A stretch of 64,000 bases of DNA from a virus (IMGVR_UViG_3300042010_000129:64001-128000), one strand, 5' to 3'. Shown: positions 393-9,671, numbered from the stretch's first letter. A program made the numbers and translations. Notes: generated by a model from the letters alone, not told the origin.

Positions 393-782
393 ATGGAAGT
401 GATGATCGCCCTCGGGGCCTCAATTAAAGTCAGTGACCGGGGCGAACATTTCGGTAAAGAATTTCGTTCCGAACACGGTTACATCTGCGTGAAAACTGGC
501 GGGCAATTCTCGCCGTGCAAACACAGCGTAACCGATTACGTGGTCAACGAAGAATCTCGCGGACAGGGCCACGGTGATTTTCTGCTGAAGGGAATTGTCC
601 GCACGTACAAATCGGATATCGGCGGTCAGGTCAGCAGCATTGCCAGCCTGCACGTGTTCTACAAAAACGGATTCCGACCAGCACTCAAACTCGATGCAAC
701 TTTGGAAGAGACGAAAAAGCTTTTCAAAGATGAATGGGGTAGCCTGCTGATGGTTTATAAACCGGCGAAGGATTTCACTTAA
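393..782 (+). CDS. GNAT-family acetyltransferase-like protein with N-terminal tag MEVMIALGAS
   Basis: Acetyl-CoA motif A-like VVNEESRGQGHGDFLL and motif B-like ASLHVFYKNGF. Confidence 0.7.
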   Translation: MEVMIALGASIKVSDRGEHFGKEFRSEHGYICVKTGGQFSPCKHSVTDYVVNEESRGQGHGDFLLKGIVRTYKSDIGGQVSSIASLHVFYKNGFRPALKLDATLEETKKLFKDEWGSLLMVYKPAKDFT

Positions 783-1705
783 TGGAAATGGAAATTGCGC
801 TGGCGGGTAGTTCTGTTCTGTATCATTTGATCCCGATGGAATACGCGATCCCAGCCCTGCAAAACAACCGCTTCAAACTCGCTGCAACCAACGAAGGCGT
901 TGAATCCGAATTCGGAAAGCAGCAATACTTCTTGAGCCTTGCGCGCTCGAAGCACAGCCACTATTTCAAAAGCGAAATCGGTTTTACGCACGTGGTGTTC
1001 GTCCTCGACGGCCAGAAGATGGGCCAGAATTACCAGATTAAACCTGTTGATTACTGGGCCAGCCAGAAGCATGTGACCTCCGATGAAATGGAAGACCGTT
1101 TGTTTGCCGACAAGCTGTATATCCCTTGCGTAAAATACGTGAAGGAAATTCATTTCATGGCCGAGCGCGAAGCCAAATACAAATCGAATGACAGCCTGAC
1201 ACTGGCGCTGTTGGCGAAACGTAACGGCATTGAGCTTTTCCAGTACGAAAAGTTTGAAGACTTCGTGAATCTGGACAAGCGCAAGAAAATCAAGCTGGAA
1301 GTCAGCGACAAGAAGAAACCGAAATTCGGTGCGAAGAAAGGTTTTGACCCCGGCCCGGATGGCGACCTGCAAGCTTGGTACGTGGCGTCTCAAATCGTCT
1401 TCAAACCAAACGAAGATTTCGGCACGCAATTTGTCAAAGGGGCCAAGCACAAAGAAGAACGCAAGGCCCGCGACCGTATACGTCGCCAGATTAACGACAT
1501 GAAGCGTTATATCGACGTAGAAAAACGCGCCGTCTACGATTTCAACAAGCTGCTTGGGTACGCGAAAGGCGGCGAAGATTTGGAATTCCTCGAAAAGATC
1601 AAACGCGTAAAACGAAAACTGCGCGTGGATACCAAAGGCTTTCTTGACTACGTGCGCAAGCGCTGGATGACTCAAGAAGAAAGAGAAATGCACGGCTTGG
1701 AGTAA
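782..1705 (+). CDS. Putative ADP-ribosyltransferase-fold protein with N-terminal tag MEMEIALAGS
   Basis: LYH near the N-terminus, FLSLARS (STS-like) and DEMEDR (ExE-like) occur in ART order and spacing; K-rich helical C-terminus; TAATG coupling to the upstream gene. Confidence 0.5.
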   Translation: MEMEIALAGSSVLYHLIPMEYAIPALQNNRFKLAATNEGVESEFGKQQYFLSLARSKHSHYFKSEIGFTHVVFVLDGQKMGQNYQIKPVDYWASQKHVTSDEMEDRLFADKLYIPCVKYVKEIHFMAEREAKYKSNDSLTLALLAKRNGIELFQYEKFEDFVNLDKRKKIKLEVSDKKKPKFGAKKGFDPGPDGDLQAWYVASQIVFKPNEDFGTQFVKGAKHKEERKARDRIRRQINDMKRYIDVEKRAVYDFNKLLGYAKGGEDLEFLEKIKRVKRKLRVDTKGFLDYVRKRWMTQEEREMHGLE

Positions 1706-1709
1706 CCGC

Positions 1710-3518
1710 ATGGAAATGCAATTGGCTGTGGCCGCAGTACGACTTAGTGTTGCGCGCCCATTCGTAAAGGGTTGGGATAAAAACGGAGTCGGCGTGAAAG
1801 CCATCCGTAAATTCCTGCCTAAAAATAGCAAAGGTTATCGGCTGTATATTCCGATCAAGAAAACGAAGGCCGACCGCGTTGTGGTGCCGAGTGCGGTATT
1901 CCACGCAATCCACGAAGCCGGGTATTCCATCGAAGATTACATCAACGGAATCGCGGTGGCCCCGGACGGTAAACGCCGCGTGCGTATCGGCAAACTTCTG
2001 CGTGATGCTGAAGCCATTAAAGAATTCGCAAACGATCCACAACGTTCGGCACACAAAGACGAATACACCTGCGTGATTTCTGCGCATCCTTACGATGTGA
2101 TCGGAATGTCTACCGGGCGCCGTTGGGATAAGACAACCTGCATGCGCCTAGCAACGCCTGAGAACAAAGGTGACGCGGGCGAAAAGGCTGTTGAGTTCAT
2201 GCCGGGCACCGTTGCGGAAGGCACGTTGGTTGCCTACGTGATCAGCCCCAAAGATAAAAACATCAACAAGCCGCATGCGCGCCTGTTGATCAAACCGTTC
2301 AAGAAAGCTGACGATCAATCTTTCGTTTATTTCAAAGTCGAAACCGCTGTTTACGGCCAACCGATTCCCGGTTTTAAACGCACGGTCGAGAACTGGTTGA
2401 AGCGCGTGAACAAAGGCGCACAGGCCGGTATTTATAAGCTGCATAAAAGCGTTCACATTGACCGCTCTGATGATTTGCGCACAGCGATTATCGCGGACTA
2501 CGAAAAGGTTGATGATAAAGACCAGTTTATCCTGAAAAATATGTACCCGGCTGGCGGGCCGAAAGTCTGGCTGAACGCCGACAAACGTTGGTTGCCCGAC
2601 ATGCTGCGCGTCACGACCGATACTCACAATCTGGAAGAAATTGTGAACGCTGCACGTGGGGCCGGAATTCATGCAAATAAAATCGGTGCGATTTACGATC
2701 AGGTAATTCCAGCCGACGACATGCGCAATTACGACCTGTCGGAATTCCTGTTGGGCACGCATGCGCAGGAATTGTTTGAAACCAGTAAACACCTTGGTGC
2801 CGCCGCCCGCGAACAATTCGAATGGGCTGACGACGAAGAAACCAACGCCGAACACGCGATGAAATACGGCCTTTACGATTCGCGCTGGCTGTCGTCCGTG
2901 ACCGATATCAGCCCGGATCTTTTGCGTCAATTGGCACAGAAATTCATTTACGGTGCGTACCGCTGGACGCCTGAATTGCAGGTATCGAAACTGCGTGGCG
3001 CCAAGCACATTCGGCTGTATCTGGCGTTTGTTGCAAACGGTTTGCTGGCCGACACCGGTTGGCTGACGCAGCGCGTAGACATTCGCAACCTGAAAGACTA
3101 CGTTAAGAAATCTAAAATCCCGGCCAGCTGGGATGAAGAAATTGTCGATCTGATTAAAACGATTAATTGGAACGCGAATTTCCGCAACTCCACGTCGAAC
3201 AGCATCAACGGTGAAGCCTGCGTACTCAACGTGGCGCCGGACTGGGCAGCGGTGTTCCCTGAATGGATTCCCGAATCGCGTCGGTTCCTTAGCGAAAAGG
3301 CGGTTGGTGTTCTGGCTAAAATGGCCCGGCACAATAAAACGATTCGCGACCAACTGGTTTACTGGGCATACAGCCAAAACCGCGATGCGCTTGCCAACGG
3401 TTATACGTGGTTTGCAGTTCGTAAAAACGTGCGTGATTTTATCCATCACGTGGCCGCGCAGAAAGGCGACGACGAAGCGATTACTTTCGCCCAACGCATT
3501 ATGTCTCTACAGAGTTAA
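1710..3518 (+). CDS. Large paralogue A (602 aa): tag MEMQLAVAA, conserved ~270 aa N-domain, unique C-domain
   Basis: Shares HPYDVIGMSTGRxWD..CMRL, EGTLVAYV, ARLLIKPF and VYGxPxPGF with the next two genes; SD GGAG upstream. Confidence 0.85.
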   Translation: MEMQLAVAAVRLSVARPFVKGWDKNGVGVKAIRKFLPKNSKGYRLYIPIKKTKADRVVVPSAVFHAIHEAGYSIEDYINGIAVAPDGKRRVRIGKLLRDAEAIKEFANDPQRSAHKDEYTCVISAHPYDVIGMSTGRRWDKTTCMRLATPENKGDAGEKAVEFMPGTVAEGTLVAYVISPKDKNINKPHARLLIKPFKKADDQSFVYFKVETAVYGQPIPGFKRTVENWLKRVNKGAQAGIYKLHKSVHIDRSDDLRTAIIADYEKVDDKDQFILKNMYPAGGPKVWLNADKRWLPDMLRVTTDTHNLEEIVNAARGAGIHANKIGAIYDQVIPADDMRNYDLSEFLLGTHAQELFETSKHLGAAAREQFEWADDEETNAEHAMKYGLYDSRWLSSVTDISPDLLRQLAQKFIYGAYRWTPELQVSKLRGAKHIRLYLAFVANGLLADTGWLTQRVDIRNLKDYVKKSKIPASWDEEIVDLIKTINWNANFRNSTSNSINGEACVLNVAPDWAAVFPEWIPESRRFLSEKAVGVLAKMARHNKTIRDQLVYWAYSQNRDALANGYTWFAVRKNVRDFIHHVAAQKGDDEAITFAQRIMSLQS

Positions 3519-3522
3519 ATAA

Positions 3523-6282
3523 ATGAAATTAGAAATGGCATTGGCCGCCGTGTCCATGAAAACGGCACTGAAATATCGCCGCAATTGGGATCGCAATGCA
3601 CCGATTGTGAAGCTGTTGCAATCCATGATGCCGTTCGGGCCGGGCAAGAAAGGTTATCGCCTGTATTTCGATATCGGCGTGAATCATAAAGCGCACTTCA
3701 CGGTTCCACCGGCTGTGCGTTCGGCTCTGCAAAAAGCAGGCTACGCGCCAACCGATTATCTGGCGAAGAAATGCGTCAAGATCGGTGACAAAGAACAGAA
3801 GAACGTTTTCAATATCGGCAAAGTAATTGCGAAAGATCCACACGCAAAAGCGGCGTTCGATAATGATCCACAATTGCAGAACACCAAACAGGGTGCTTTG
3901 CAGGTCGTGATCAGCTGTCACCCGTATGACGTAATCGGTATGAGTACCGGGCGTGCATGGGACAAAATGTCGTGCATGCGCCTTGCTGACGGCGAACACC
4001 GTCTCGATCCCGGTTCGAACGCGCATTACGTGCGCAATGACGTTTCGGAAGGCACGTTGGTTGCGTATGTCGTCGGCGCCGATGATTCGAATATCCAGCA
4101 CCCAAAAGCACGCTGCTTGCTGAAGCCTTTCTACAACGAAAAAGGCGAAGTGCTTTATCGTCGCGAAACCCGCATTTACGGCAATCCGGTTCCCGGTTTC
4201 GATATTATTCTTTCGCGTTTTCTGCGTAAGATTAATGCGCACCTTCCGGAAGGCACGTTCAAGATGGGCCGTGGCCTGTATGACGATGGCATGGGGCAGG
4301 AGCATTATCACAAAGCATCGCACGACGATAACCTGTCGATTGAAGACGTAACGACCGACACAGCGCACGCCGTGCAATTTGTGCAGCAGCAAATCAAGGC
4401 CATGCCTGACCACGATATGCGCGACGAACATATCGACAATATCATCACCTATCTGAACAACGACGAAATTCAAAGTCGTTTGAAAGAAACGCAAATTGAT
4501 GAAATCGTCGAAACCCTAAAAGGCGTGAAGGCCGCAGTTAACGGCATTCATTTGCTGGCCTACAAGGATCAGCCTTTGGGTACGGTGCTGGCTGAAGTCG
4601 GGCGCCGCATTGGCTCATTCGATAAAACGAAAGGTTTCACGAAAGAAATTCTGGCCGGTCTGGATGACGACCGCGTTCACAACCTTTCGCACGGTGGCGG
4701 CAATCCGGTAATCGAAGCGCTTAGCCGCGTGGAAGAATTGAGCGATTATGAACTGCGTGATAACTCGCGCATTTTCAAAATGATCCTCACTGGCAAAACT
4801 CCAGTACCTTCGAAAGAGGAATTGGAAACCTTGCCAAATTGCGCACGCATTTTGAATACCGCTGCGCACGCTGCCCGCCACATGACGATGCTCAATGATG
4901 ATTCGATGCAGAAAGGTGCATATGCAATTATCGACCTCGGAATTGACGTGGAAAATGCAATCTGGCTCGGCCCGGATGCAGCAGACATGATGTACGCAAC
5001 TGGCGGCATTAATCTTTTCCTCGGTTACGTGATGGATAACGTCGGCAAACTGAGTTCGGATGCGTTGTGGGCCGCTGACCCTGCCGTAACTGCAATGGCG
5101 CTCGCGAATCGCCGGGTGTTCCGCTTCCTCGATAAACAGGAAGATCGCCAAATTGCATTCATGATGGATCATGTGAAAATGGAACAGGTTAAATACCTGA
5201 TCCTGAATCCACGGCAGGAACAACTTTTCAAAGACAACAAAGCGGCGCTCATTAAATACCTCGACGATAACGAGGAAGTTATTCCGTCAATCCTCGGTAA
5301 TGGATGGGAACCGCAGTACGTGAAAAACTTGGCGAATCTCCATTTGCCAGCCGTAATGCATTTGACCGAAAGCGATGGCATTTTCACTTCGGGACTTGCC
5401 GATACGATGCAGGGAATTATCCCGGCGTTGATGGCATGGGACGGCCCGAAACTGGAACCGCTGACCACCGATGTGGAAAACGCATTGCAGATTATCGTGC
5501 AGGCCGGAAACCTTCTGGAAAAGCCGTTGCATCTGGAACGGAAAATCGACGAAGATCAATTCGAAATTCGCGATATCACGGACGTATCGGACAACTACGT
5601 GCAACGGGCCAGTGCCAATCGGTATACCCGTATTAAATCGTTCCCTGAATTGCTGTATAAGCTGGATTTCAACGGCGAACGTGCGGACATTACACATTCG
5701 ACCGAACTCATGGAACATTTGGGCGGCGATGCATTCGGTTGGGTTCCTACCGATAAGCTTCCGGGCGAAATGCGTAGCATGCTGAAACTGGTGCGTGAAA
5801 TGGATTTGGGGCCTGCAATTGATGCGCTCTACAACCTGATCAACGCAACGCGTTTGCTTCCATTGGAAGAGGTGGATGCGGGCGTTGAACGACGCATGAA
5901 TGACCGCGAAATTTTCATGCCCGACGATGACGTATTGGACGAAGACGCCTACGAAGAGGCAGACGCTGCGTACAATGAAATTCGTGAATCAATTGAAAAC
6001 GAAATCATTGAGAACAATTACAAAACCATTCGCCTCAATCGTAAGCTGTTGGAAGCGTTGGAAAAAATCAAAGACTTCGTGGGCTATGACGAAGACGTTG
6101 ACTATTTCGAGGACGACGCTCCACTCGCCACATTCGCCACCGATTTGACGAACGTTTCCGAAGACGATTACGCCGACAATGAAGACCGCGTGCGCGATTT
6201 GCGGGCTGAGTTGAAAAGTGAATGTGAAAGCCGTCCGAACGAACAGCAGGAAATGGAAGACGACGCTGGTTTCAGCGAATAA
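3523..6282 (+). CDS. Large paralogue B (919 aa): tag MKLEMALAA, conserved N-domain, acidic helical C-terminus
   Basis: Same N-domain motifs as paralogues A and C; D/E-rich last ~150 aa. Confidence 0.85.
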   Translation: MKLEMALAAVSMKTALKYRRNWDRNAPIVKLLQSMMPFGPGKKGYRLYFDIGVNHKAHFTVPPAVRSALQKAGYAPTDYLAKKCVKIGDKEQKNVFNIGKVIAKDPHAKAAFDNDPQLQNTKQGALQVVISCHPYDVIGMSTGRAWDKMSCMRLADGEHRLDPGSNAHYVRNDVSEGTLVAYVVGADDSNIQHPKARCLLKPFYNEKGEVLYRRETRIYGNPVPGFDIILSRFLRKINAHLPEGTFKMGRGLYDDGMGQEHYHKASHDDNLSIEDVTTDTAHAVQFVQQQIKAMPDHDMRDEHIDNIITYLNNDEIQSRLKETQIDEIVETLKGVKAAVNGIHLLAYKDQPLGTVLAEVGRRIGSFDKTKGFTKEILAGLDDDRVHNLSHGGGNPVIEALSRVEELSDYELRDNSRIFKMILTGKTPVPSKEELETLPNCARILNTAAHAARHMTMLNDDSMQKGAYAIIDLGIDVENAIWLGPDAADMMYATGGINLFLGYVMDNVGKLSSDALWAADPAVTAMALANRRVFRFLDKQEDRQIAFMMDHVKMEQVKYLILNPRQEQLFKDNKAALIKYLDDNEEVIPSILGNGWEPQYVKNLANLHLPAVMHLTESDGIFTSGLADTMQGIIPALMAWDGPKLEPLTTDVENALQIIVQAGNLLEKPLHLERKIDEDQFEIRDITDVSDNYVQRASANRYTRIKSFPELLYKLDFNGERADITHSTELMEHLGGDAFGWVPTDKLPGEMRSMLKLVREMDLGPAIDALYNLINATRLLPLEEVDAGVERRMNDREIFMPDDDVLDEDAYEEADAAYNEIRESIENEIIENNYKTIRLNRKLLEALEKIKDFVGYDEDVDYFEDDAPLATFATDLTNVSEDDYADNEDRVRDLRAELKSECESRPNEQQEMEDDAGFSE

Positions 6283-6307
6283 AAACAGTAATTTTATAGT
6301 ATGTTAC

Positions 6308-6343
6308 GCCGGGAAGGTTTAGGCTGACCCGGCTTTCTTTTTT
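6308..6343 (+). terminator. Intrinsic terminator-like hairpin after paralogue B
   Basis: GCCGGG...CCCGGC stem followed by TTTCTTTTTT. Confidence 0.55.
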
Positions 6344-6357
6344 ATGGATCAAAAAAC

Positions 6358-9021
6358 ATGCTAATTGACTTGGCTTTCCTCGGTACAGCAGCGGTTTCAA
6401 TGCGTAGTGCTTTGAAATACCGCCGCAATTGGGATAAGAACGGGCCTACCGTTCAATTGCTGCGCAAATTCATGCCGCGTGGTTCCAAAGGGTTTCGCGT
6501 TTATGTTCCCATTGGACACGCACAAGTTACGAACAACGTGGTTATTCCGTTGCCAGTTCGCTTGGCCGTTCGCAAAGCCGGTTTCCGTATCACTGATTAC
6601 CGGGCAAAGCGTTGCGTTAAGCTGAACGACAAAGATCAGAAAAACGTATTCAATATCGGTAAGGTTATTTCGAAAGACGCCGTGGCAAAAGCCGCATTCG
6701 ACAATGACCCGCAATTGCAGAACAGTTCTACCTCCGAATTCACAATGGTTATTTCCTGTCACCCATACGACATTATCGGTATGTCTACTGGCCGTGATTG
6801 GGATGAAACCAGCTGCATGCGCATGGGAGATTATCGCGACGATTACAGCGATGGTTCCAACGTCAGCTATTTGAAACATGACGTGGCCGAAGGAACGTTG
6901 GTTGTTTATGCCGTGCGTTCTGACGATACGAACATCACGAAACCATTGGGCCGTTGCCTGTTGAAACCTTTCCTGCGTGACGATGGATCGGGTTCTATTT
7001 TCTATCGTCGTGAAACCGATGTTTACGGCAACCCGGTTCCCGGTCTGGCTGAAACGTTGGCGCGCTTCCTGCGCAAATTGAATGCCGGTGTGCCTGCCGG
7101 GATTTATAAGCTCAACGAAAAGCTTTACAACGACGGCCTTGTACCGCGTGCAGAAAACGATGGTTCTTCCGAAGGGCCAACCGTTGACTGGGCAGTGGTT
7201 GACGATCAGCAGAAGCTGAAAGAACGTCCCGAAATGTTTGCAGATTTTGCGAACTATTTGATGAAACGAAACGCGGAAGGAATCACCGATACCAGTGTGG
7301 TGATCAACATCCTGATCGACCACGCAAAAACGATCAACGCACGTTTCGTCAAACCAGCGGCCCGCGTAATTGCCAATCCAAAATTCGCTGCTGCATTCCT
7401 CGAACATGCTGCGTCTTCATTCTCGGATTCCGATTCGGATAGCATCGCTAAATTCATGGCATCGCCTGAGTTCCGCCGTGCGCTGTTGCGTGCTGAACGC
7501 GAAGCAGAAGAGGCGCCGGATACCTACCGTTCGCTTTCGTTCCTGAGTCCGAAAAACGCACATCGTTATTTCGTGCGTGAAGTAAAAGACAATCCGGACA
7601 ATTACAACTATGCGGCAATCAGCTACGCGTGCGGCACCGTTGACCTGTTGCCGGACGATGTTGAATCCATTCCAGAACTACACAAACTCGTATTTAAATA
7701 TGCAGAGTTGATTCGTGAAAGTTCTGTGTTTGGTTCGACTGCTTATCAGGAATCGGCACACCGCGTGCTGTCTACTGTTGAGCCGTACAAAGGCGAATAC
7801 ACGCGTGCAGAAATCGAGGATATTGCCGCGACGTTGGCCGGTGATAAACAGACGTATCGCGCAATCATGGCGTGGTATATCAATTCGAGTACAGCAAACG
7901 ACCGGATGACTTCTGATTTCCTTGCCGATTTCATCAAGGAAGTCCGGTTCCGTTGGGCGCTACGTGATCGTCGGATGCGTAAACGAATTCTCGGCCTGAA
8001 AAACATTTCCGACAATGCCCGCCGCATGATTACAAATGCTATCGTGGAATTGATGGATAACCACGAAGCGCAGGATGCCGCCAGTATCCAACGTGACGTG
8101 ATAGCTCACATTCGCCGCACAGGTTTTGACTGCCTGACTGCCGGTAACTACCTGAGCATTTTGGGTAATGCCCCGCAGTTGTTTAAATCGCTGTGGTATT
8201 CGGAAGGAAATGAAATCGGTGCGGAAATGGTTGAGGCCCTGTTGGCCCGGCCTTCGATGCTGAGTGAACGCATTCGTGAAAATCCTGATGCAGTGCCACA
8301 AAACGATTTCCAACAAAACATTTTCCGCGTGGCAAAAACGTTCGTGGTTGTGATCGGTAATCCGACAGAACAAGACAAGGAAATTGGCGCTGTCGATCCG
8401 GACGTGATGCGGGTTCTGGTTAAATTCGGTGGTGCAATGCGTGCCCTCGGACACTTCATTATCAACCTCGCTGATTATCCGGAATTGTTGAACGGTTCGA
8501 CCTACGTTGGTGCCGGTATTTTCCCACTGGATTTGATCGGTGAAGACAACGGCCACAAGTTCCTTGATTCACTGCGTGAAAAAGATATCGACGCAACGCA
8601 AACCCTGTTGAAAGCTGTAGCGCACGATTTTGCGCAGATGGGTTTGTATGCGGGCGCAGCTACCCGGCAGAATCGCGTTCTCAGTAATGCCGGTGCCCCT
8701 AGCGGTATTGCAACGATGGCGAAATCCCCGCCAGAATTCGCAGTCGCTGCCCAAGGGCGTTACGTTGCGGCAATTCAGAAGGTGAACAGTTTTATCGAAA
8801 ACTTCCCGGTAAGCGGAACTATCGAAGACTGGGAAAAACTTCTGCCTCAAATGGATATGGAACATCTGCCAGCCTTCAACGAAATGGTGGACGGCATGCT
8901 GGATAATCAGCGTCAAGTTCAGCAGACCGCGCAGATGTTTGCGATGTTTGCCCAAGGCGAAACGAAAGAGGCATTGAAGGCCGCACTTCCGCCCGAATGG
9001 CTCACGATAAAGGATTTGTAA
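6358..9021 (+). CDS. Large paralogue C (887 aa): variant tag MLIDLAFLGTAAVS, conserved N-domain, helical C-domain
   Basis: ALKYRRNWD, KNVFNIGKVI, AAFDNDPQLQN, ISCHPYDIIGMSTGRDWD and SCMR are near-identical to paralogue B. Confidence 0.85.
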   Translation: MLIDLAFLGTAAVSMRSALKYRRNWDKNGPTVQLLRKFMPRGSKGFRVYVPIGHAQVTNNVVIPLPVRLAVRKAGFRITDYRAKRCVKLNDKDQKNVFNIGKVISKDAVAKAAFDNDPQLQNSSTSEFTMVISCHPYDIIGMSTGRDWDETSCMRMGDYRDDYSDGSNVSYLKHDVAEGTLVVYAVRSDDTNITKPLGRCLLKPFLRDDGSGSIFYRRETDVYGNPVPGLAETLARFLRKLNAGVPAGIYKLNEKLYNDGLVPRAENDGSSEGPTVDWAVVDDQQKLKERPEMFADFANYLMKRNAEGITDTSVVINILIDHAKTINARFVKPAARVIANPKFAAAFLEHAASSFSDSDSDSIAKFMASPEFRRALLRAEREAEEAPDTYRSLSFLSPKNAHRYFVREVKDNPDNYNYAAISYACGTVDLLPDDVESIPELHKLVFKYAELIRESSVFGSTAYQESAHRVLSTVEPYKGEYTRAEIEDIAATLAGDKQTYRAIMAWYINSSTANDRMTSDFLADFIKEVRFRWALRDRRMRKRILGLKNISDNARRMITNAIVELMDNHEAQDAASIQRDVIAHIRRTGFDCLTAGNYLSILGNAPQLFKSLWYSEGNEIGAEMVEALLARPSMLSERIRENPDAVPQNDFQQNIFRVAKTFVVVIGNPTEQDKEIGAVDPDVMRVLVKFGGAMRALGHFIINLADYPELLNGSTYVGAGIFPLDLIGEDNGHKFLDSLREKDIDATQTLLKAVAHDFAQMGLYAGAATRQNRVLSNAGAPSGIATMAKSPPEFAVAAQGRYVAAIQKVNSFIENFPVSGTIEDWEKLLPQMDMEHLPAFNEMVDGMLDNQRQVQQTAQMFAMFAQGETKEALKAALPPEWLTIKDL

Positions 9022-9447
9022 ATGGAACTGTTTATTGCACTGGCTGCCGAGGATGTGAGCGCACGGATTTCTGATGGTGTGCGTTCCATTCTGAAAAAGT
9101 CGTATAGCTCACTGTTCGCGAATGTGTTTGTGCGGGTTTTCGATATTGAGGATCGGCACAAATCGGATATCAAAATCGTTCGTGAAATGCCGAAAGAATA
9201 TGCACCGGTTTGGGTTACGGTCGAGAACGCGCAGCACGATATTGTGACGTTCGTTTTCGCGGTGCCTACGCTTGCGCCAGTGCTGCACATTCCAAACCCG
9301 CCGCTGGCCTACGTGATCCACAACGAAAAAGTCGAGCAATTCAAACTCGAACCACGCGTTGTGCAGGTTCGCGGGGCTGACTACGCAATCGCTGCTGCTG
9401 TCGCACGCCGGGCACCGAACTTTATTGAAATCGGAGTGAGCAAATAA
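9022..9447 (+). CDS. Hypothetical protein with N-terminal tag MELFIALAA
   Basis: ORF abuts the upstream stop; tag matches its neighbours. Confidence 0.75.
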   Translation: MELFIALAAEDVSARISDGVRSILKKSYSSLFANVFVRVFDIEDRHKSDIKIVREMPKEYAPVWVTVENAQHDIVTFVFAVPTLAPVLHIPNPPLAYVIHNEKVEQFKLEPRVVQVRGADYAIAAAVARRAPNFIEIGVSK

Positions 9448-9671
9448 TGGAAATGATCCTCTCGCTTGCGCGGGCTGGATCGGCGGAACGGTGGGATGCA
9501 ATTCCGGAAGTACGCTTTGACAAAGCAAAGGAAGGGCACTCACTGAATGCGTCCGGCAAACTCTCAAAAAAGCGCCGCAGAAAACGCCTGAAAAGCGGAC
9601 TGATCGACACGCCTCTAAAGGGCGCAGAGAAACGGCAAATGGATATTCAGGACACGGTTAGATGCCCGTGA
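9447..9671 (+). CDS. Small basic protein with N-terminal tag MEMILSLARA
   Basis: TAATG coupling; KKRRRKRLK basic patch. Confidence 0.65.
   Translation: MEMILSLARAGSAERWDAIPEVRFDKAKEGHSLNASGKLSKKRRRKRLKSGLIDTPLKGAEKRQMDIQDTVRCP

Follow-up and report, generated by a model that had tools for sequence, protein, structure and literature searches.

Background

Internal head proteins that are targeted to the capsid by a leader are known from phage T4 and a few giant phages, and the host encounters them before any other phage protein. Head-internal proteins of phiKZ-like and SPN3US-like phages occur as tandem paralogue sets, which are packaged in the jumbo-phage head and processed by the prohead protease. 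The present study deals with three tandem genes between positions 1,710 and 9,021 of a stretch of viral DNA of 64,000 nucleotides (IMGVR_UViG_3300042010_000129:64001-128000), which is referred to in its full length as the window. The genes encode proteins of 602, 919 and 887 amino acids (aa), named P0001, P0002 and P0003 (paralogues 1 to 3), and each protein consists of a short leader, a conserved N-terminal domain of about 255 residues (N-domain) and a long C-terminal region (C-region). Most likely, the three genes arose long ago by tandem duplication from one gene type, composed of leader, N-domain and solenoid, that is widespread in large tailed phages. The explanation we favour, and which we hold to be moderately probable as a whole, is that their products are packaged into the head and delivered together with the DNA, with the N-domain as a candidate Cys/His/Asp enzyme and the solenoid as its tail. 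Within this explanation, packaging into virions is better supported than the enzyme step.

The T4 internal proteins IPI, IPII, IPIII and Alt carry a short N-terminal leader on otherwise unrelated proteins, and the same is seen in the phage of the window. They are found in virions, as are two homologues of the N-domain proteins, and the gene sets are clustered and variable. However, the proteins of the window are far larger (602-919 aa) than the T4 internal proteins, and no T4 counterpart of the N-domain was detected. The T4 capsid targeting sequence (CTS) is a 10-residue propeptide, which suffices to target a protein to the head and is removed by gp21 through cleavage at a LIE-type site (PMC9026906). 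Its form MK..h.h.E↓A (the arrow marks the cleavage point here and below) is seen in those relatives with an E-type leader, whose phages encode a gp21-type protease. While the T4 CTS ends with L/I-x-E, the leaders in the window end with A-A↓V, and Lu11, one of the closest phages, gives no match to a gp21-type protease.

The inner-body and ejection protein sets of phiKZ and SPN3US consist of tandem paralogues with one conserved domain, as does the set in the window. However, both phages belong to a different lineage from the Lu11-like phages, and no sequence relation to their inner-body proteins was found using PHROGs, the only resource applied to this question. A third system to be considered are the polyvalent proteins of phages, which are thought to be capsid-delivered (Iyer et al. 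2017, PMC5512222). In polyvalent proteins several effector domains are fused in one large protein, whereas the proteins of the window have one conserved domain and a solenoid. Among the relatives, only two metagenomic proteins fit the multi-domain pattern: P0057 (1,844 aa) carries an ART-PolyVal domain (E 2.8e-20) at its N-terminus and behind it three to four copies of the N-domain, and in this respect resembles polyvalent proteins, and P0032 (1,817 aa) combines three N-domain copies with DUF4116. In both proteins the hidden Markov model (HMM) of the N-domain breaks into two halves, positions 1-146 and positions 143-243, which are separated by variable inserts. The surveys of jumbo phages and of polyvalent proteins do not mention the N-domain.

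The N-domain family

A preliminary description of this locus had proposed that the three proteins share an N-domain of about 270 aa, and this proved correct. Over the first 255-265 residues or so, BLASTP gives 43% identity between P0001 and P0003 (E 3e-70) and 57% between P0002 and P0003 (E 3e-109). The features of the three genes are all located on the plus strand. The N-domain covers approximately residues 10-259 of paralogue 1 (1737..2486; HMM envelope 3-259, E 2e-89), residues 10-263 of paralogue 2 (3550..4311; HMM envelope 3-263, E 9e-86) and residues 13-267 of paralogue 3 (6394..7158).

The conservation of single residues within the N-domain is pronounced. In an alignment of 51 diverse members with about 30-40% identity, 14 columns are invariant, corresponding to R47, G101, S133, H135, P136, D138, R146, W148, C153, Y184, D190, P196, R199 and G224 of P0003, and all 14 residues are kept in each of the three paralogues. 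The invariant elements can be summarized as S-x-H-P-x-D, R-x-W, S-C, Y, D and R. The core motif S-x-H-P-Y-D ... R-x-W ... C lies at 2079..2141 in paralogue 1 (S124 to C144), at 3913..3975 in paralogue 2 (S131 to C151) and at 6754..6816 in paralogue 3 (S133-x-H135-P-Y-D138 ... R146-x-W148 ... C153). The invariant His, Asp, Ser, Cys and Arg pointed out in the preliminary description are found throughout the alignment, and so is an invariant Trp. Each of the sequence motifs listed there is present as well, but two of them are looser than stated: RxWDxNG reads KGWDKNG, RNWDRNA or RNWDKNG, and GxYKL reads GIYKL, GTFKM or GIYKL.

The N-domain is far from being confined to the window. An exhaustive phmmer search of a database with 1.84 billion representatives, clustered at 50% identity, yielded 1,968 clusters at E ≤ 1e-3 and 1,189 at E ≤ 1e-10, with protein lengths from 109 to 1,844 aa. 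A second search located members on contigs of 166-492 kb, which often encode several of them, and no Pfam domain overlaps the N-domain in any of these members. By tblastn the N-domain was found in 41 records of isolated phages; the tblastn records comprise jumbo phages of Erwinia, Dickeya, Pseudomonas, Ralstonia and Agrobacterium as well as two uncultured phages of more than 600 kb. The domain starts at most 30 residues from the N-terminus in 152 out of 153 proteins, and it is basic, with a median isoelectric point (pI) of 9.44 and a pI above 8 in 93% of the members.

Scans of the whole window proteins and of their parts against Pfam, PHROGs and NCBIfam gave nothing above noise, and neither the single sequence nor the profile of 51 members has a sequence match in the PDB. 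One family member, gp194 of the Erwinia phage pEa_SNUABM_5 (MW366843.1, 158731-160908), is labelled 'putative exonuclease SbcD', but no Pfam model backs this label.

Homologues in virions

Two homologues of the N-domain proteins have been identified in virions by others. In purified virions of phage Atu_ph07, 18 unique peptides covering 41% of the sequence were assigned to CDS394 (PMC6102473 Table S5), which was described as a protein with 'no significant homology', encoded by 1,455 bp and with a mass of 55.10 kDa (PMC6102473). It corresponds to the homologue AUZ95153.1, which has the same length and a computed mass of 55.10 kDa; its flanking genes, the 312 bp CDS393 and the 759 bp methyltransferase CDS399, back this identity. 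In phage RsoM2USA, ORF132 (76.64 kDa) was identified by mass spectrometry from one of ten analysed bands of virion proteins separated by sodium dodecyl sulfate polyacrylamide gel electrophoresis, and the bands excised were the most abundant ones (PMC8504454). The computed mass of this open reading frame (ORF) product is 76.62 kDa and its tblastn match has an E-value of 6e-37. The paper on the Dickeya JA phage contains no virion proteome.

Presence in virions would also be expected if the proteins were purely structural components of the head interior, for instance inner-body, DNA-organising or ejection-conduit proteins, whose N-domain binds DNA or head proteins and whose invariant residues hold a metal ion or the fold. 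We consider this somewhat unlikely, but it is the alternative with the most in its favour. The RsoM2USA homologue is abundant enough for a Coomassie band, the N-domain is basic in 93% of the members and matches no enzyme family, long alpha-solenoids such as the one predicted below are typical scaffolds, and phiKZ-like and SPN3US-like phages possess tandem sets of head-internal paralogues. However, 14 invariant columns that are rich in S, H, D, C, R and W at about 30% identity exceed what is usual for structural proteins, and every one of these residues is kept in all three paralogues. The repetition of the N-domain behind an ART-PolyVal effector domain in P0057 likewise weighs against a purely structural role.

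Leaders and prohead proteases

The preliminary description had placed the proteins directly behind a putative packaging tag, and the conserved domain does indeed lie directly behind a shared N-terminal leader. A leader of the form M-E/K-x-x-h-A-h-A-A/G opens the ORFs starting at 393, 782, 1710, 3523, 9022 and 9447, and a longer variant is present on the ORF starting at 6358. The leader is thus common to the window paralogues and to the unrelated neighbour ORFs at 393, 782, 9022 and 9447. In paralogue 1 it reads MEMQLAVAA (1710..1736) and would be cut before V10; it also aligns with the leaders of the relatives. The leader of paralogue 2, MKLEMALAA (3523..3549), has been assigned by the same alignment and is likewise presumed to be cut off. 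The longer variant of paralogue 3, MLIDLAFLGTAA (6358..6393), with the general form ..F[LM]G[TL]AA↓V and a putative cut at its end, recurs in the orthologues P0005-P0008 and in gp209 of Lu11.

When the relatives were aligned on the start of the domain and their leaders counted with a rough pattern, two classes became apparent. The A/S-type, h-[AS]-h-[AS]-A↓[VIL], is present in at least 83 relatives including the window proteins, whose own form is M-x-h-x-h-A-h-A-A↓V. The E-type, M-K-x-x-x-h-h-x-E↓A-L-K-P-S, is present in at least 115 relatives. A metagenomic contig (L019, JAXDEL010369399.1, 8729-16282) encodes five tandem family members of 401-468 aa that start with MITFKDFLEE↓A and differ in the length of their repeat-rich C-termini. 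The next gene of this array starts with MITFKEFL, does not match the N-domain HMM and has a C-terminal part that matches none of the five, so that here, as in the window, the leader is shared with an unrelated protein.

The two virion-associated homologues carry E-type leaders, namely MQYTDLIE↓A in Atu_ph07 and MKTFKQFLNTLME↓A in RsoM2USA, and both phages encode a protease of the T4 gp21-type (PF03420; E 2.4e-22 and E 2.5e-30, respectively). A/S-type leaders are found in Lu11, Yoloswag and pEa_SNUABM_5, and the complete genomes of these three phages (JQ768459.1, KY448244.1 and MW366843.1) contain no match to PF03420. The HK97-type protease PF04586 is absent from all five genomes. The leader type thus appears to track the family of the prohead protease in these genomes, and the maturation protease of Lu11, Yoloswag and pEa_SNUABM_5 would either be of a type not yet recognised or have diverged strongly.

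Predicted fold of the N-domain and nearest named families

The AlphaFold2 (AF2) model of the N-domain of P0003 has a predicted local distance difference test (pLDDT) value of 88.8, with residues 1-8 disordered, and displays an alpha/beta architecture that is weakly GNAT-like. Foldseek searches with this model against the PDB retrieved GNAT acetyltransferases only, and these weakly (best E 0.056). Among the AFDB clusters, the matches were family members, followed by C-terminal parts of DUF4132, DUF4116, LRR and ZorC-like proteins (E 1e-6 to 6e-2). The Pfam profiles did not place the window proteins in any acetyltransferase family at E ≤ 10, nor the 51 members at E ≤ 1. The CoA motif of GNAT proteins, Q/R-x-x-G-x-G/A, is not conserved in the N-domain family, which has Y-G-x-x-x-P-G-F (E..VYG...PGF) at this place; only Y223 and G224 are invariant or nearly so at the expected site, and the other invariant residues sit elsewhere than the CoA motif. 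The model therefore weakly suggests a resemblance to GNAT at the level of the fold only.

By predicted shape and by language-model features, PcfJ (PF14284) is the nearest named family. A PcfJ cluster was found in the shape search of the ESM atlas with a template modelling (TM) score of 0.34 by query and 0.52 by hit, its score by language-model features is 0.87 and thus below the line of 0.9 used for leads, and BFVD contains PcfJ rows with E 0.04-0.16 in the shape search. By eye, the core of PcfJ resembles that of the N-domain, with a strand-P, a helix, [HS]-C and then Y...G-T-x-[IV]-x-[FY]. On the other hand, the PcfJ domain is C-terminal in the proteins that carry it, and the S-x-H-P-x-D and R-x-W motifs of the N-domain family are missing from it. 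The PF14284 HMM matches neither the window proteins nor the 51 members, nor any protein of a related virus record (G001) at E ≤ 10. Homology to PcfJ is not supported by hhalign, which gave a non-significant probability of 0.45% with a PcfJ alignment of nine sequences (PcfJ of pCF10 and eight phage PcfJ proteins), and PcfJ of pCF10 alone was also not significant. A kinship with PcfJ is accordingly kept as a lead.

PcfJ occurs in conjugative plasmids and in phages of Gram-positive bacteria. The PcfJ genes adjoin genes of the AcrIIA9 family (Cas9 inhibitor) in the conjugative plasmid pCF10 (L007:15874-17984) and in two temperate phages, the Listeria phage B054 (L008) and the Streptococcus phage SM1 (L009), a neighbourhood that hints at an anti-defence context for PcfJ.

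One could also assume that the N-domain proteins are not internal to the head at all. They might belong to another part of the virion, such as the tail, the baseplate or the capsid surface, or they might be early anti-defence proteins related to PcfJ that contaminate the virion preparations. The position of PcfJ-like clusters as the nearest named ones, their AcrIIA9-family neighbours and the fact that the window runs on into apparent large structural genes would agree with this. We nevertheless regard it as clearly unlikely, since the comparison with PcfJ is not significant by hhalign and no PF14284 match is found, since the E-type leader has the form of the T4 CTS and the leader type follows the prohead protease family, and since 18 peptides with 41% coverage as well as an excised, abundant gel band are hardly expected of a contaminant.

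The C-terminal regions

C-region 1 consists of 335 aa (2511..3515; pI 6.3), C-region 2 of 648 aa (4336..6279; pI 4.5) and C-region 3 of 612 aa (7183..9018). Beyond residue 265 or so, BLASTP detects no significant similarity among the three paralogues (best E 1.3-2.7). The preliminary description had called these regions helical and unrelated; they are indeed helical and very divergent, but unrelated only in pairwise comparisons, since a comparison of profiles joins C-regions 2 and 3. For this purpose, every protein was cut eight residues past the projected end of the N-domain HMM. With this cut, C-regions 2 and 3 align over 547 collinear columns with an hhalign probability of 97.8% (E 1.3e-12; reversed-sequence controls E 0.24-0.33). 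C-region 1 shows a weak collinear signal to C-regions 2 and 3 with probabilities of 6-31% and E-values of 5e-4 to 6e-3 (controls 0.5-0.7). An apparent match of C-region 1 to C-regions 2 and 3 with a probability of 89% was discarded, as the score came from leftover residues of the N-domain tail.

The AF2 model of C-region 3, which was built from an alignment of 33 sequences, has a pLDDT of 89.4 and about 38 helices. It matches only alpha-solenoids in the PDB, AFDB and the atlas (E 1e-4 to 4e-3), among them beta-catenin, the PP2A A subunit, karyopherin, condensin, designed armadillo, HEAT and TOG proteins. The low TM-scores of 0.1-0.44 are what solenoids that differ in curvature should give. According to the model, C-region 3 is an ARM/HEAT-like alpha-solenoid, and by homology the same can be predicted for C-region 2. 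No Pfam or repeat HMM matches the C-regions of the window, whereas such repeats are seen by HMM in distant relatives: DUF4116 in 12, HEAT in eight, LRV in seven and WG repeats in two of 80 C-terminal parts.

The very acidic tail that had been noted on one of the proteins is confirmed for paralogue 2. Its last 100 residues (5980..6279) contain 31% aspartate plus glutamate and have a pI of 4.1. Of 13 orthologues, 12 have tails with 23-35% aspartate plus glutamate, and only P0034 falls below this range with 18%.

Among the metagenomic relatives, separate orthologues can be assigned to each paralogue, with 22-39% identity in the C-regions; one near-identical orthologue each of paralogues 1 and 3 lies outside this range. 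In 36 of 37 relatives in which both halves could be assigned, N-domain and C-region belong to the same window paralogue, so that the two halves evolve together and are not exchanged. This bears directly on the proposal, put forward in the preliminary description, that a conserved carrier or enzyme domain is joined to swapped C-terminal cargo, as in polymorphic effector systems. An exchange of C-termini among orthologues is not what the lineages display, two of the three proteins have homologous C-regions with one shared predicted fold, which is among the outcomes that the preliminary description had itself named as refuting, and the Foldseek search with the model of C-region 3 returned alpha-solenoids and neither a toxin nor an enzyme payload. 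The roles assigned to the two parts also look reversed: the conserved part appears to be the functional module, and the tag the carrier.

Even though the C-regions have no pairwise similarity, vary in content across the family (DUF4116, HEAT, LRV and WG repeats) and are linked by BLAST to none of the three in 15 of 52 nearer relatives, a conserved N-terminal carrier with exchangeable, unrelated toxic payloads is largely refuted and has to be regarded as very improbable, since C-regions 2 and 3 are homologous, C-region 3 is a predicted solenoid without a toxin or enzyme domain and Pfam is blank in all C-regions, the N- and C-lineages agree, Lu11 and G001 have kept the three-gene set, and the element common to unrelated proteins is the leader and not the N-domain.

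Genomic context

The three genes belong to a giant Pseudomonas phage of the Lu11-like kind; the phages closest to the window are the Pseudomonas phages HRDY3 and Lu11, with 71-74% identity in patches (blastn). Lu11_0207, 0208 and 0209 (627, 887 and 899 aa) are the same three genes in the same order, and the related virus record G001 likewise has three copies in tandem. Paralogue 1 (1710..3518) is the orthologue of Lu11 gp207 by synteny, and paralogues 2 (3523..6282) and 3 (6358..9021) are the orthologues of gp208 and gp209; all three belong to orthologue groups of their own.

The junctions between the genes are tight (3518/3523, 6282/6358 and 9021/9022), and the next ORFs carry leaders themselves. 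Just upstream, the ORF at 782-1705 (plus strand) encodes a leader-bearing protein of 307 aa, the best family match of which is Glu2-Pro with an E-value of 0.014, below the cut-off. Directly downstream, two ORFs at 9022-9447 and 9447-9671 (plus strand) encode proteins of 141 and 74 aa with the leaders MELFIALAA and MEMILSLARA. Since these small ORFs carry the leader, the tagged array extends beyond the three paralogues.

Discussion

Several elements of the proposed function are directly supported, namely the existence of the domain family, located behind the leader, the division of the leaders into two classes, the homology of two C-regions, the solenoid fold and the presence of two homologues in virions. 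On this basis, head packaging and delivery of a candidate enzyme could proceed as follows. The leader of 9-12 residues, which is similar to the CTS of T4, would bring the protein into the prohead and would probably be cut off there by the prohead protease. The proteins would then be packed into the head together with the DNA and, by analogy with the T4 internal proteins and Alt, would most likely leave the head with the DNA at infection. The basic alpha/beta N-domain of about 255 aa would be the working module, most likely an enzyme whose activity would depend on the invariant Cys, His and Asp residues. The fast-evolving ARM/HEAT-like alpha-solenoid would probably bind a partner, or else serve as a spacer or scaffold.

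A number of points weigh against this explanation and have to be considered. The evidence from virions comes from two homologues and not from the phage of the window or from Lu11, and association with the virion in two published proteomes is no proof of a location inside the head. Both the high abundance in virions and the solenoid would equally fit a purely structural role. The correlation of leader type and protease family is drawn from five genomes only, and a protease that could cut the A/S-type leaders was not found, as Lu11 has no match to PF03420 or PF04586. Cleavage of the leaders is deduced from sequence only. Furthermore, the GenBank entries for gp207-209 of Lu11 bear no label beyond 'hypothetical protein'.

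One may go a step further and assume that the N-domain represents an enzyme family not described before, whose Cys/His/Asp active site sits on a scaffold resembling GNAT or PcfJ, and that thousands of large phages load this enzyme into the head and inject it along with their DNA. The solenoid would then pick the target in the host or on the DNA, and the paralogues would be aimed at different targets. We consider this possible, but put it forward as a tentative suggestion. If true, it would mean that a widespread chemistry of delivered effectors has so far gone unrecognised.

Conclusions

A single unnamed domain, represented by about 2,000 sequence clusters, recurs as a passenger in the particles of large phages, often in several tandem copies. 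The proteins bearing it are abundant in both published virion proteomes, yet they were not recognised there. Their description gives the annotation of phage genomes a family that is worthy of a name. The leaders, which appear to track the type of the protease, form a natural series that may help to predict packaged proteins in uncultured phages. Moreover, the N-domain provides a concrete candidate for a new injected activity.

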